From positions 3,804 through 67,803 of the forward strand of contig JBMOMW010000057.1 in the NCBI GenBank assembly GCA_049325255.1: a stretch of 64,000 nucleotides of DNA. Reading direction: 5' to 3'. Positions 31,501 to 45,161 of this stretch are shown in pieces. The first letter of the stretch is position 1. Each line of letters begins with the position of its first letter. The DNA comes from Pseudomonadota bacterium (GTDB lineage: Bacteria > Pseudomonadota > Alphaproteobacteria > UBA11222). The notes under the pieces were generated by a model. It was not told the origin of the DNA. It was given only the letters and a program-made list of their open reading frames with translations, and did not search any database. The position numbers were made by a program, and so were the translations under genes.

Positions 31501-32611
31501 ATGAATATTCTGACGATTAATGCAGGCAGTTCCTCTGTCCGTTTTGAATTGTTCACAGTAGTTGATGACGTTCCGCAATCGTTGGGACAGGCAATGTCGG
31601 CGGCAGGTGATCCAACCACTCTGTTCGCGCAGTTGGCGGCAGAAGCGGGGCTGGGGATAGAACCACCGTCCGCCGTCGCCCATCGCTGGGTGCATGGCGG
31701 ACCACAGGTGCGCAAGGCGGCGTTGATCGACGCGAATATAGAAGCGGCGCTTGCACAGGCCGCGCCTCTGGCGCCGCTGCATGCGCCCGCAAGCCTGGCC
31801 TGGCTTGCCCATTGCCGCACAATCATGGGGCCAGATGTGCGCCAGATTGTCGTTCCTGACACAGCGTATTTCGCCAGCATGCCGGATGTTGCAGCTAATT
31901 ACGCCTTGCCGCGGGAACTTTCCGCGCTGCACGGCCTTCGCCGTTACGGCTTTCATGGTCTGGCGCATCAGTCCCATGGTCACCCAATGGCTTGCCAGCC
32001 GTGGCGGCGATTTTGGCGATGCAAAGGTGATTTCATTGCAATTGGGTGCAGGGTGTTCCATCACCGCGAGCCGTGGTGGCGCGCCCGTGGACACCTCGAT
32101 GGGCTTCACGCCGCTGGAAGGCCTGGTCATGGCCACCCGCGCGGGCGATGTGGATGCGGGTTTGCTGTTTTATCTGCAACGCGAAGCAGGGATCGATGCA
32201 GCGCAACTGGAAACGCTTTTACAAAAGGAATCGGGACTGCTCGGCCTTTCGGGCGTCAGTGGAGACATGCGGGTTCTGCTCGCCGCTGACAAGTCCGCGG
32301 CAAAAAGCGCCATTGCGCTTTATTGCTATCGCGCGAAAAAATATATTGGCGCCTATCTTGCGGTGCTGGGCGGCGCCGACGCTGTGCTGTTTGGCGGCGG
32401 CGTTGGTGAGAACAGCCCGGAAATCCGTGCGCGCATACTTGCAGGAATGGGATGGTGCGGCCTTAAGCTCGACACCGCCGCAAATCAGGCGCCAAAGTTG
32501 CAAGGCGGACGTATCAGCACCGCCAATAGCAAAATCGAAATCGCCGTGATCCGCGTCGATGAAGCGCACATCATGGCGCAAGCCGCCGCTGATCTGCTAC
32601 GGGGAAAGTAA
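31501..32611 (+). CDS. ackA: acetate kinase, interrupted by a +1 frameshift near 31975-31985 (pseudogene or sequencing error)
   Basis: ORF 31501-32289 matches the AckA N-terminus (MNILTINAGSSSVRF..., RYGFHGLAHQ) and then loses similarity. ORF 31751-32611 in the next frame continues VTQWLASRGG...ISLQLGAGCSI...SMGFTPLEGLVMATRAGDVD...GGGVGENS. Confidence 0.7.
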
Positions 32612-36557: not shown

Positions 36558-37313
36558 TCAGCCGCTGTGCCTTATGTGTTTATCCAGCTTTTCATGCAGC
36601 ACACGGTGTGTTCCGCATTCATCAGCCATTGAGCATTCGCCGCACGCAAAGTTATCGGCCTTGCGCATATCCTGGATGGAGACGTGCGTGCCAGCAACCG
36701 TAATCCCGTGATCCCGCAGGGTTTGCAGCGTGCGCGAGAAAGTTTCCTTTTTGATCCGCAGACGCGAGGCGATCAGGGTTTTCGTGTAAGGCAATTCAAA
36801 CCCGTGCGGGTCGAAATTATACAGCACACAGAGCTTCTGAAGATAGCATGCGACCATCTGCGATGCGGACATGGTGGTAAGCTGTTCCGCCTCGAGCTGT
36901 GTGCCATGCAACCGGTCGGCGATGCTTGCCAGCAGTTTCTCCGCCATATGGTCGAAATCCTTGATATGCTCGCGCATCCAGGAAATCGGGATTTCGAGTA
37001 GTGAGCAATCTTCCACTGCGCGGGCATTCATCTGATGCGCGTCCTGACGGGCAAGCACTTCATCGGCATTGATGCTGTCCCCGGCTATCAGAATATTGCT
37101 GGTGACTTCGTGTCCGCCCGGCGTCTCACGGAAGATTTGCATGGCGCCCCGGCAGATCACATAAAAATGGGTGATCTTGTCCCCGTGCATAAACAGGCAC
37201 TGTCCGCGTTTGCAGATGATGATCCGGCTGTTGCAAACCAGCAGGTCGCCGTCCGCCCTGCTGATATCCGAAAACAGGGGAAGCGCCTGAAGTGTATCCA
37301 ATGCGGTAGTCAT
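36558..37313 (-). CDS. Crp/Fnr-family transcriptional regulator (paralog 2) with C-terminal CxxC-x5-C-x2-H extension
   Basis: About 80% aa identity to 14126-14881. Same E--SR HTH (ETFSRTLQTLRD). C-terminal FACGECSMADECGTH. Confidence 0.85.
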   Translation of the reverse strand: MTTALDTLQALPLFSDISRADGDLLVCNSRIIICKRGQCLFMHGDKITHFYVICRGAMQIFRETPGGHEVTSNILIAGDSINADEVLARQDAHQMNARAVEDCSLLEIPISWMREHIKDFDHMAEKLLASIADRLHGTQLEAEQLTTMSASQMVACYLQKLCVLYNFDPHGFELPYTKTLIASRLRIKKETFSRTLQTLRDHGITVAGTHVSIQDMRKADNFACGECSMADECGTHRVLHEKLDKHIRHSG

Positions 37314-37401: not shown

Positions 37402-37415
37402 TTGACTGTAATCAA
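37402..37415. promoter_or_regulatory. FNR box TTGACtgtaATCAA upstream of fnr paralog 2 and divergent from the small Met-rich protein gene
   Basis: Read directly, about 90 nt upstream of the fnr-2 start codon. Confidence 0.55.
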
Positions 37416-37727
37416 TTCATTAGCTGGCAATTGTAATTAGTTTGAGAATGTCTTTTCGTAACGTCACGGAAGGATGTTAACCCAACCCCACCCTTTCCCT
37501 GGATGTAATCGTTGCATTCCGGGGATTTTTTTGTGCTGCGCGCTTGTTAGTGCGCCTGCTCAAAGCCAGCATCGCGGCGGCGGTGTGCGCCTTCCAATTT
37601 TATCAATTCCAGCGTGACCGGCGCCGGGAAAATGAGTTGATTAAAATCAAAGCCATCCAGGCCTCGTAATGATCAAATTCACATTGGTGGAGTTTTAATG
37701 GTTCACATAACAGGAAGGAGCATCAGG

Positions 37728-38030
37728 ATGAATAACATTCTAAAAATACTGGCGGCCGGCGCTATTCTGGCGCTTCCGCTGACAGCTAGCGCTGCAGACA
37801 CAGCCGCGCAACCAGGCACGCCGCCGCAAAACACGCCTGTCTATCCCTGCTGGGATATGATGAAGGATGGCAAGATGACGCCAATGCGCGGCATGTGGCA
37901 TGGAACCGGTCCCGGCAATGCGCAAGGCGGCATGATGATGATGAACGCCCAGGAAGTGCAGCGCATGCAAAAGGAAATCGAGACATTGCGCAAGCAGGTA
38001 ACAGAAATGCAGAACAAACAGCCAAAGTAA
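37728..38030 (+). CDS. small secreted Met-rich protein with C-terminal coiled coil
   Basis: Strong RBS AGGAAGGAG. Signal peptide MNNILKILAAGAILALPLTASA. MMKDGKMTPMRGMWHG...GGMMMM motifs. C-terminal heptad-like QRMQKEIETLRKQVTEMQ. Confidence 0.5.
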   Translation: MNNILKILAAGAILALPLTASAADTAAQPGTPPQNTPVYPCWDMMKDGKMTPMRGMWHGTGPGNAQGGMMMMNAQEVQRMQKEIETLRKQVTEMQNKQPK

Positions 38031-38054
38031 CAACCTCTGCTGGAGGCTCAAAAA

Positions 38055-38621
38055 ATGCAAGTCCCCTATGAAATTACATTTGACGGCATGGACCCCTCGG
38101 ACGCCGTGCGTGCGCGGGTTCAAAAAGAAATCGACAGGCTGGAGCGGTTCCATGACCGCATCACCTCGTGCCGCATCGCCATCACGGCGCCGGGTAAACA
38201 CAAGCGTCAGGGGGGCCTGTACGATGTAAGAATTTTCATGGCCATCCCCGGTGGTGGCGAAGTCAGTGCGCAACGCAATCCTGTCAACAATCATGCGCAT
38301 GAAGATGTCTATGTTGCGATCCGTGACGCCTTCGCGGCTGCGCGCCGTCAATTGCAGGACAAGGACCGCAAGATCGAAAATAACGTCAAGGCGCATGAGA
38401 CGCCGCCGCATGGCCGTATCGCCCGCATATTCTATTATGAAGGCTATGGCTTCATCGAAACCCCGGACGGCGGCGAGGTGTATTTTCATCGCAACAGCGT
38501 AACCGGTACGAAGTTTGAGAAGCTGGAAGCCGGGCATGAGGTGCGTTTTACCGAGGAACTTGGCGAAAAGGGACCGCAGGCAAGTGTTGTGCATCTGATT
38601 GGTAATCACCATCCGGTTTGA
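38055..38621 (+). CDS. ribosome hibernation factor (HPF/RaiA, sigma-54 modulation protein domain) fused to a C-terminal cold-shock domain
   Basis: N-terminal ~100 aa are HPF-like (YEITFDGMDPSDAVRARVQKEIDRLERFHDRITSCRIAI). C-terminal GRIARIFYYEGYGFIETPDGGEVYFHRNSV is a CSD (RNP1-like GYGFI). Confidence 0.75.
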   Translation: MQVPYEITFDGMDPSDAVRARVQKEIDRLERFHDRITSCRIAITAPGKHKRQGGLYDVRIFMAIPGGGEVSAQRNPVNNHAHEDVYVAIRDAFAAARRQLQDKDRKIENNVKAHETPPHGRIARIFYYEGYGFIETPDGGEVYFHRNSVTGTKFEKLEAGHEVRFTEELGEKGPQASVVHLIGNHHPV

Positions 38622-44037: not shown

Positions 44038-44051
44038 CCTTGATTTGCATC
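44038..44051. promoter_or_regulatory. perfect FNR box TTGATTTGCATCAA in the divergent promoter between the acyl-CoA synthetase operon and the APH-like kinase gene
   Basis: Read directly. Identical to the 32742 box. Confidence 0.6.
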
Positions 44052-44123: not shown

Positions 44124-45161
44124 TTGATCAGGCCCCAGGAAATCTCTATCGAAGAAAAGGTGCGATTCCTGCAGCATCCGGCTGCCTATGGGCAACCGGG
44201 CACAGCGGAAGTGCTGGTCAAGGAAACGCATATGTCATGGGTGTTTCTGACCGGCGCGCGCGTTTACAAACTCAAGAAACCAGTCCGTTATGATTTCCTT
44301 GATTTCAGCACCCTTGATGCGCGCGAAAGAAATTGCCGCGAAGAAGTCCGGCTCAACCGCCGGCTGGCGGAAAATGTCTATCTCGGCGTTCTGCCGCTAA
44401 CGCTGAGCAGTAAAGGCGAACTTGCCATCGGCGGTGAGGGGCCATCGGTCGACTGGCTCGTCTTGATGCGCCGCCTCCCCTTGGATCGCATGCTGGATCA
44501 AGCCATCGAGAGGAGCACAGTCAGCCGCGCTGAAATCATCTCCGTCGCAGACCGGCTTTCGGATTTTTACGGACTTGCGCCGCCTGCGGAACTGACGCCG
44601 GAGGCTTATGTAGAGCAGTTCATCCGCGAGCAGGCGCAGACGCGGGCGGTGCTCACAGACCGGACTTTTGACTTGGACGGCGCGCGGATCGGGAAAATTC
44701 TTGGCGGCATAGAGGATATATTGTTTGCGCAATCTGAACTTCTGAAGGCGCGTGTTGAAGGTGGCAGGATCATTGAGGGACATGGGGATCTGCGGCCTGA
44801 ACATGTATGTCTCAATACGCCCCCGGTCATCATCGATTGCCTGGAGTTCAACCGGGGATTCCGGCTGGTTGATCCGGCCGACGAACTGACTTTTCTTGGC
44901 CTTGAATGCGAGCATCTCGGGGCGGGCTGGATTGGACCAGCGCTGTTAAACCGCTACACTGAGCGGCTTGGCGATACGCCATCGGCCAGGCTTATCGCGT
45001 TCTACCGCAGCCACCGCGCCTGCCTGCGGGCGCGCCTGTCACTGGTTCATATTCTGGAGCACGACCCGCGCAAACCGGAACACTGGCTGCCCCTGGCGCG
45101 CCACTATCTGGAACTGGCCGATACGACCGAACTCAATCCCGGCTTTCCAGAATCTCATTGA
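44124..45161 (+). CDS. aminoglycoside-phosphotransferase-like kinase (Rv2004c-like N-terminal family)
   Basis: HGDLRPEHV catalytic-loop motif. N-terminal SWVFLTGARVYKLKKPV...FLDFST...R motif is typical of the dormancy-associated APH-like family. Start could be the ATG near 44230. Confidence 0.65.
   Translation: MIRPQEISIEEKVRFLQHPAAYGQPGTAEVLVKETHMSWVFLTGARVYKLKKPVRYDFLDFSTLDARERNCREEVRLNRRLAENVYLGVLPLTLSSKGELAIGGEGPSVDWLVLMRRLPLDRMLDQAIERSTVSRAEIISVADRLSDFYGLAPPAELTPEAYVEQFIREQAQTRAVLTDRTFDLDGARIGKILGGIEDILFAQSELLKARVEGGRIIEGHGDLRPEHVCLNTPPVIIDCLEFNRGFRLVDPADELTFLGLECEHLGAGWIGPALLNRYTERLGDTPSARLIAFYRSHRACLRARLSLVHILEHDPRKPEHWLPLARHYLELADTTELNPGFPESH

Follow-up and report, generated by a model that had tools for sequence, protein, structure and literature searches.

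A predicted HPFcold-class ribosome hibernation factor behind an FNR-type box in an uncultured Pseudomonadota lineage

The closest described relative of the protein studied here is CBU_0020 of Coxiella burnetii, named HPFcold and present as chain 9 in PDB entry 9T0Z (Stuart et al., bioRxiv 10.1101/2025.11.08.686982; Nat Commun 2026;17:7049). In that report, cryo-EM located the PF02482 domain of CBU_0020 in the decoding centre of the 30S subunit and its cold-shock domain (CSD) on the anti-Shine-Dalgarno (aSD) 3' end of 16S rRNA, where it is pincered by bS21 and touched by bS7. HPFcold was found bound in native ribosome preparations, and only 70S particles were observed. The authors propose that the CSD shields the rRNA 3' end from RNases, replacing 100S dimerisation; they do not exclude 100S particles in Coxiella in vivo, as dimers were possibly lost in preparation and dimerisation through the CSD is possible. 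By their account, every class of Proteobacteria has members with the PF02482-PF00313 fusion, as do Cyanobacteria and further phyla (Nat Commun 2026;17:7049). Independently, a survey described HPF-Csp chimeras, i.e. HPF homologues without the C-terminal dimerisation domain and fused to a Csp domain, which occupy variable genomic locations, often near stress or hibernation genes and sometimes on plasmids, and which are said to coexist with canonical HPF (bioRxiv 10.1101/2025.11.04.686544). Two further systems are of interest for comparison: RafH (Rv0079/MSMEG_3935), a DosR-regulated, hypoxia-specific 70S hibernation factor of mycobacteria (PMC10799931), and the lxa locus of Burkholderia cenocepacia, a large low-oxygen-activated island with a TGA-N6-TCA Anr/Fnr-like motif before its genes (PMC3721108).

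The preliminary description of the locus presented below had implied that a fusion of this kind was new. This did not hold, since the class has been published as HPFcold, noted separately as HPF-Csp chimera and named by NCBI. With the Coxiella structure and mechanism published in 2025-26 and the class recognised by annotation pipelines, the fusion itself is no longer a novelty: NCBI names several homologues 'HPF/RaiA family ribosome-associated protein', and some carry the JGI name 'cold shock CspA family protein/ribosome-associated translation inhibitor RaiA'. What the present locus adds is modest and of an ecological and regulatory kind, namely a recurrent FNR-type box upstream of HPFcold genes, among genes for low-oxygen stress.

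The 188-aa protein and its likeness to CBU_0020

The window, by which we mean the whole stretch of 64,000 nucleotides that was analysed, carries the HPFcold-type gene at 38055-38621 on the plus strand. It is a single ORF of 188 aa plus stop codon, starting with ATG, without internal stops or frameshifts, and a Shine-Dalgarno sequence GGAGG (38042-38046, +) was read from the sequence 8 nt 5' of the ATG. Pfam detected two domains in the same frame: PF02482 (Ribosomal_S30AE), covering residues 6-107 with 55.8 bits (cut-off 23.7, E 7.8e-15), and PF00313 (CSD), covering residues 129-180 with 47.3 bits (cut-off 27, E 1.9e-12). The initial observation that one ORF joins an HPF/RaiA-like and a CspA-like domain was thus confirmed. 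The N-terminal HPF/RaiA (S30AE) domain covers 38070-38375 (+) and the CSD residues 119-181 (38409-38597, +), with a linker of residues 108-118 in between (38376-38408, +), in which pLDDT is low at residues 112-115. The CSD shows an RNP1-like motif GYGFI and an RNP2-like motif VYFH, and the peptide GYGFIETPDGGEVYFHRNSV corresponds to residues 130-149 of the protein. An antisense ORF overlapping the gene (37740-38612, minus strand, 290 aa) was treated as a shadow ORF and rejected as a gene, because the domain and homologue evidence lies entirely on the plus strand.

An AlphaFold2 model was built from a 50-sequence alignment (mean pLDDT 75, CSD blocks 82-91, pTM 0.48). It shows the beta-alpha-beta-beta-beta-alpha order in the N-terminal domain followed by a five-stranded CSD; given the pTM of 0.48, the placement of the domains relative to each other is undefined in this model. 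When compared with the PDB by Foldseek, the N-terminal domain matched RaiA, HPF and pY structures with TM(target) of 0.78-0.85 and the CSD matched Csp structures with TM(target) of 0.85-0.90. Only separate domains were matched, 9T0Z being absent among the Foldseek matches listed, from PDB entries released up to 8 April 2026. In a PDB sequence search, CspB structures matched the C-terminal domain with E about 1e-8. The other reading of this tail, a standard long-HPF C-terminal domain mistaken for a CSD, was therefore set aside: the PF00313 score lies above its cut-off, and both the CspB match and the Csp fold matches agree with it. A search of the protein against Pfam at E<=1 gave no match to the long-HPF C-terminal dimerisation domain, which we take to be PF16321; the C-terminal half is occupied by the CSD.

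Both Csp and HPF/YfiA models of NCBIfam matched the protein, all under their equivalog cut-offs. The HPF/YfiA model TIGR00741 gave 32.1 bits against 40.9, and two other HPF/RaiA/YfiA models gave 16.1 against 158 (NF007654) and 14.6 against 125 (NF007780). The best Csp model reached 35.1 bits against 120, the CSD being only the C-terminal third of the protein. By these scores, the protein belongs with neither the standard Csps nor the standard HPF/RaiA proteins. Its length and architecture say the same: short HPF/RaiA (YfiA) proteins have a single domain of about 95-113 aa and stand-alone CspA-family proteins a single CSD of about 70 aa, whereas this protein has 188 aa and a domain of each kind.

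The sequence search recovered the Coxiella factor over its full length: chain 9 of 9T0Z matched residues 1-178 with E 7.6e-39 (phmmer), and BLASTP gave 43% identity and 61% positives with 6 gap positions. PDB entry 9TZE was matched as well, and the PDB label is 'Ribosome hibernation promoting factor'. The two proteins share the order PF02482, short linker, PF00313, have similar lengths (188 and 183 aa) and align end to end. By sequence, then, the 188-aa protein is a member of the HPFcold class, and at this identity a fairly divergent one.

According to the supplement of Stuart et al., Y142 of CBU_0020 offers a stacking surface to U1534 and F132 does so to C1535, with which R123 also pairs, while R177 bridges rRNA backbones and the KLEVG motif (K155) faces 16S h40. 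The aligned equivalents in the 188-aa protein are R124 for R123, F133 for F132, Y143 for Y142, KLEAG (156-160) for KLEVG and V178 for R177; the protein thus retains the aSD-stacking R, F and Y as well as KLExG, but not the R177 bridge. We looked at these positions in an alignment of 134 sequences, made up of 132 diverse family representatives, the 188-aa protein and CBU_0020. The F133 position holds F in 117/134 and the Y143 position Y in 124/134, and R or K stands at the R124 position in 96/134. Within KLExG, L157 is kept in 122/134 and G160 in 130/134 sequences. In the linker, K112 is kept in 117/134 and H114 in 102/134. The position of R177 is usually T or S in the family. These counts indicate that an aromatic platform for aSD binding is shared across the family and present here, and that R177 is specific to Coxiella. 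Two more differences concern short segments: a 5-residue insertion before helix 2, 'NNHAH' here (family consensus HAHED), and the tail 'IGNHH' (family consensus GKHH), are both absent in Coxiella. The source also differs, the 188-aa protein belonging to an uncultured, free-living lineage of Pseudomonadota and its gene lying in an operon and an island marked by FNR-type boxes.

In the same alignment, Cys39 is near-invariant (115/134 sequences, Coxiella included), and several His residues are family-specific: H80 and H82, which lie in the HAHED motif missing from Coxiella; H145; and the C-terminal GKHH tail (H185-H186 here). The roles of Cys39 and of these His residues are not discussed in the available portions of the HPFcold paper. 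They could form a metal or redox site. More speculatively, Cys39 together with H80, H82, H145 and the C-terminal HH might make ribosome binding redox- or metal-sensitive.

The preliminary description had suggested that the CSD tail would add single-stranded RNA binding to a ribosome-silencing factor, and the solved homologue supports this by analogy, as the CSD of CBU_0020 binds the 16S aSD tail. In another reading, the protein is a cold-shock-type RNA chaperone or mRNA-binding regulator acting mainly off the ribosome, with the S30AE part as no more than an accessory or degenerate module. The RNP1- and RNP2-like motifs and the matches to stand-alone Csp proteins are in line with it, and so is the score of the NCBIfam HPF/YfiA model, which stays under its cut-off. 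However, the N-terminal domain exceeds its Pfam cut-off, and across the family it is conserved no less than the CSD. The KLExG motif, which contacts 16S h40, is family-specific and absent from free Csps, and every NCBIfam Csp model stays far under its cut-off. Moreover, native ribosome preparations contained the homologue in the 30S decoding centre. We consider the off-ribosome role improbable.

A role on the ribosome might also take the form of 100S dimer promotion as by long HPF, with the CSD as the dimerisation or bridging module. Long HPFs do dimerise ribosomes via their C-terminal domain, and the Coxiella authors allow both for dimer loss and for CSD dimerisation, as mentioned above. Against this, the protein has no dimerisation domain of the PF16321 type. 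In the Coxiella structure, moreover, one and the same ribosome supplies the aSD on which the CSD is buried and the proteins bS21 and bS7 that flank it, and 70S was the only particle seen. Dimer promotion seems to us slightly less probable still than the off-ribosome role. The preferred reading remains that of a 70S-type factor of the HPFcold class.

The fusion was sought in other taxa, as had been proposed at the outset, in a search covering about 5.8 billion proteins that gave matches in the thousands. Both Pfam domains were found in 118 of the best 120 homologues, which are mostly 180-200 aa long. An exhaustive HMMER search of 50%-identity representatives gave 240 family clusters at E<=1e-30, nearly all of them aligning end to end. 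This indicates that the fusion is neither rare nor an assembly artefact, and a sequencing or assembly error merging an adjacent short HPF and csp gene has a negligible chance of being the explanation: nothing was found in its favour, yet an acetate kinase gene in the window does look frameshifted, and against it stand one clean ORF with no stop or frameshift between the domains, the same architecture in best homologues from independent sources and in the clusters at 50% identity, and a solved protein built in the same way.

The operon, its FNR-type box and the surrounding island

The HPFcold gene is the second of a two-gene operon. The first gene (37728-38030, +) encodes a Met-rich protein of 100 aa and stops 24 nt before the ATG of the HPFcold gene, and no plus-strand terminator was found between the two. 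Its product has a signal-peptide-like N-terminus (…LTASA/AD…), a Met-rich core (…MMKDGKMTPMRGMWHG…GGMMMMNAQ…) and a coiled-coil-like C-terminal tail, and the ORF has its own ribosome-binding site, GGAAGGAG. The position described for the HPFcold gene, directly after a small Met-rich and probably secreted protein, stands.

The Met-rich protein has no match in Pfam or NCBIfam, and its homologues form only 20 clusters. Upstream of HPFcold it is conserved only in the close relatives L001 and L003; elsewhere, without HPFcold, it is found alone or beside MgtC and a P-type ATPase, which it precedes in L086. These neighbours hint at a periplasmic metal-related role. We considered it as an obligate partner of HPFcold and rejected this, given the 20 clusters, the lack of a domain and its absence beside the 90%-identical HPFcold of L002. 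The small number of clusters and the other contexts point to a lineage-specific passenger.

Upstream of the operon lies a perfect FNR/FixK-type box, TTGATTAAAATCAA (TTGAT-N4-ATCAA, 37637-37650), centred 84.5 nt before the ATG of the Met-rich ORF, that is, at the promoter distance looked for in members of an FNR/FixK regulon. The layout of box, Met-rich gene and HPFcold gene is conserved in L001 and L003. In L002, which lacks the Met-rich gene, a box stands directly at -116 of HPFcold. A promoter scan detected no sigma-70-like -35/-10 pair near the box at 37637-37650, and Rfam and tRNA scans showed no RNA element near the HPFcold gene.

On the other side of the box, a divergent gene (36558-37313, -) encodes a Crp/Fnr-family regulator with cNMP-binding and HTH_Crp_2 domains (Pfam). 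A second FNR-core box, TTGACTGTAATCAA (37402-37415), lies upstream of this gene. The recognition helix of the regulator reads 'ETFSR' (E-x2-S-R), and the E--SR motif is one that reads TTGAT half-sites. In NCBIfam it resembles FtrB and Fnr most, with scores far under both cut-offs. We also noted that the N-terminal Cys cluster known from E. coli FNR is missing and that a C-terminal CGECSMADEC motif (C-x2-C-x5-C) is present instead, which we take to resemble the [4Fe-4S] site near the C-terminus of Bacillus subtilis Fnr. An adjacent Crp/Fnr gene with an E--SR helix is suggestive of control of the HPFcold operon by such a regulator, with the box as its putative target.

The box is not an isolated one. 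Perfect TTGAT-N4-ATCAA boxes occur four times in the window, the one at 37637-37650 included, against 0.05 expected, and the FNR-box setting claimed for the gene was thus upheld. The shorter FNR-core form, TTGA-N6-TCAA, occurs 11 times in the window, between 21187 and 55708, against 0.87 expected; the four perfect boxes are among them, and all 11 are intergenic with respect to the ORFs taken as genes. Boxes precede a LemA/TPM operon, a cyclopropane-fatty-acid synthase, a P-type ATPase, a nitroreductase, a beta-CASP RNase with a thymidine-phosphorylase-like enzyme, an AMP-ligase/E1/E2/ACP operon, GroEL and Hsp20, and a flavin monooxygenase-like gene; phosphoketolase, acetate kinase and PRPP synthetase/phosphoribosyltransferases also belong to the island. 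We regard 21187-55708 (roughly 35 kb) as a putative Crp/Fnr regulon island of stress/dormancy and fermentation genes.

Two genes of the island call for a remark. The acetate kinase, directly downstream of the phosphoketolase gene, is split (31501-32611) into two ORFs that overlap in different frames, with ORF 31501-32289 covering Pfam profile positions 85-183 and ORF 31751-32611 covering positions 198-392; this frameshift is either a pseudogene or an assembly error. The second is ORF 44124-45161 (+, 345 aa), which has no family assignment and stands directly behind the perfect FNR box at 44040. It was considered as a Balon-like hibernation factor and rejected, having no PDB sequence match and a weak APH phosphotransferase/kinase resemblance (E 0.0025).

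Boxes upstream of HPFcold genes in other loci

To see how far the box accompanies the gene, we fetched 84 further loci with family members and counted those 79 in which 250 nt or more of upstream sequence was available. TTGA-N6-TCAA was found within 300 nt upstream of the HPFcold start codon in 19 of these 79 independent loci, against a background in the same loci of about 0.03 boxes per 300 nt (binomial P about 1e-12). As a control, 11 composition-matched palindromes with permuted half-sites were found in 0-1 of the same 79 upstream windows. Relative to the start codon, boxes were present in 19/78 loci at -300 to 0, in 8/67 at -600 to -300 and in 2/59 at -900 to -600, and in 0/83 inside the HPFcold gene itself, so that the positional peak of FNR-core boxes is just upstream of the gene. 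The share of family loci with such a box is only about a quarter to a third.

This recurrence suggests hibernation induced by oxygen limitation. In the literature, partly judged by title and abstract, we found nothing relevant on FNR/FixK control of such a factor, and we found mention of neither FNR nor hypoxia nor anaerobiosis in the main text of the HPFcold paper (Nat Commun 2026;17:7049).

The closest genomic relatives of the locus are MAGs of uncultured Pseudomonadota and Alphaproteobacteria, and cultured carriers of HPFcold include Methylocella, Sinorhizobium fredii, Azospirillum and Pelagibius. Homologues are plasmid-borne in Methylocella tundrae, Azospirillum and S. fredii, which agrees with the survey of HPF-Csp chimeras; the survey differs from the present work in having no FNR-box analysis. 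The neighbours of HPFcold across loci are varied and stress-themed (RtcB, archease, BON, Usp, DUF2267, Hsp20, CBS, GroEL and nitroreductase) and also include Host_attach/baeRF12 proteins, which we assume to be Balon-like.

Some of these neighbourhoods deserve mention in their own right. On the conjugative S. fredii plasmid pSF45436d, the homologue lies near two Crp/Fnr regulators, a P-type ATPase and a hemerythrin, as well as a 'host attachment' protein, again presumably Balon-like. On plasmid 2 of M. tundrae it adjoins an erythromycin esterase-family gene, and the same pairing was seen in two metagenome loci. Among 138 immediate HPFcold neighbours, counted in loci among L006-L085, the commonest Pfam families were the RNA-repair ligase RtcB and its cofactor archease, with 5 ORFs each; in L025, RtcB (486-1919) immediately precedes HPFcold, and an FNR-core box lies between the two. 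This neighbourhood may reflect a functional link of RNA repair to a factor guarding the 16S 3' end.

Proposed function and comparison with known systems

We propose that the 188-aa protein is an HPFcold-class factor that blocks the decoding centre, clamps the 16S 3' tail and stores 70S ribosomes, and that it is made under limitation of oxygen or a related signal; we give this reading a probability of about 0.8. By homology to CBU_0020, the N-terminal domain would insert into the 30S decoding centre and block the path of tRNA and mRNA, and the CSD would clamp the 3' tail of 16S rRNA at the aSD, preventing initiation and shielding the rRNA end from RNases. With initiation blocked and the 3' end shielded, ribosomes would be kept as inactive 70S monomers and not as 100S dimers. 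The gene would be co-transcribed with that of the small Met-rich, presumably periplasmic protein from a promoter with the perfect FNR box, beside the Crp/Fnr regulator. Given the boxed operon, the regulator and the island, production of the factor would most likely follow a shortage of oxygen, or of a related signal to which a Crp/Fnr-family protein responds. The architecture, the homology and the kept contact residues are observed; that the protein binds ribosomes, stores them in the 70S form and responds to oxygen is inferred.

A broader version of the proposal would be that, in a large fraction of its carriers, HPFcold is an oxygen-limitation-specific factor wired directly to Crp/Fnr-type regulators (FNR, FixK, Dnr). 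We hold this tentatively, at a little under even odds. The box pattern suggests that HPFcold serves many free-living Proteobacteria to park their ribosomes once oxygen runs out. If confirmed, this would tie the new class of hibernation factor to a defined environmental signal, a matter left open by the structural paper.

Compared with long HPF, short HPF with RMF, and RaiA/YfiA, the 188-aa protein shares the N-terminal fold and probably the same decoding-centre site. Unlike long HPF and RaiA/YfiA, it has neither a PF16321 domain nor a RaiA tail and carries an extra CSD.

In composition and motif, the island recalls the lxa locus and the DosR regulon. As context, it has in common with lxa an alpha-crystallin/Hsp20, a nitroreductase, an acetate kinase, a cation ATPase and a Crp/Fnr regulator. 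The likeness is one of content and motif, with gene contents that overlap only partly, and a ribosome factor is not mentioned in the lxa paper (PMC3721108).

Like the present protein, RafH is a two-domain HPF linked to 70S monomers that engages the aSD region (here by homology), and its low-oxygen regulon also has Hsp20, a nitroreductase and a cation ATPase. The two differ in that RafH has a duplicated C-terminal domain of the long-HPF type on the platform, and that its linker, not a CSD, touches the aSD. Control differs too, being exerted by DosR and not through a Crp/Fnr-type box. If the broader proposal is true, HPFcold would be the proteobacterial counterpart of the mycobacterial DosR-RafH module, and the present locus would show the arrangement at its clearest, with a perfect box, an adjacent regulator and a co-regulated dormancy island around them.
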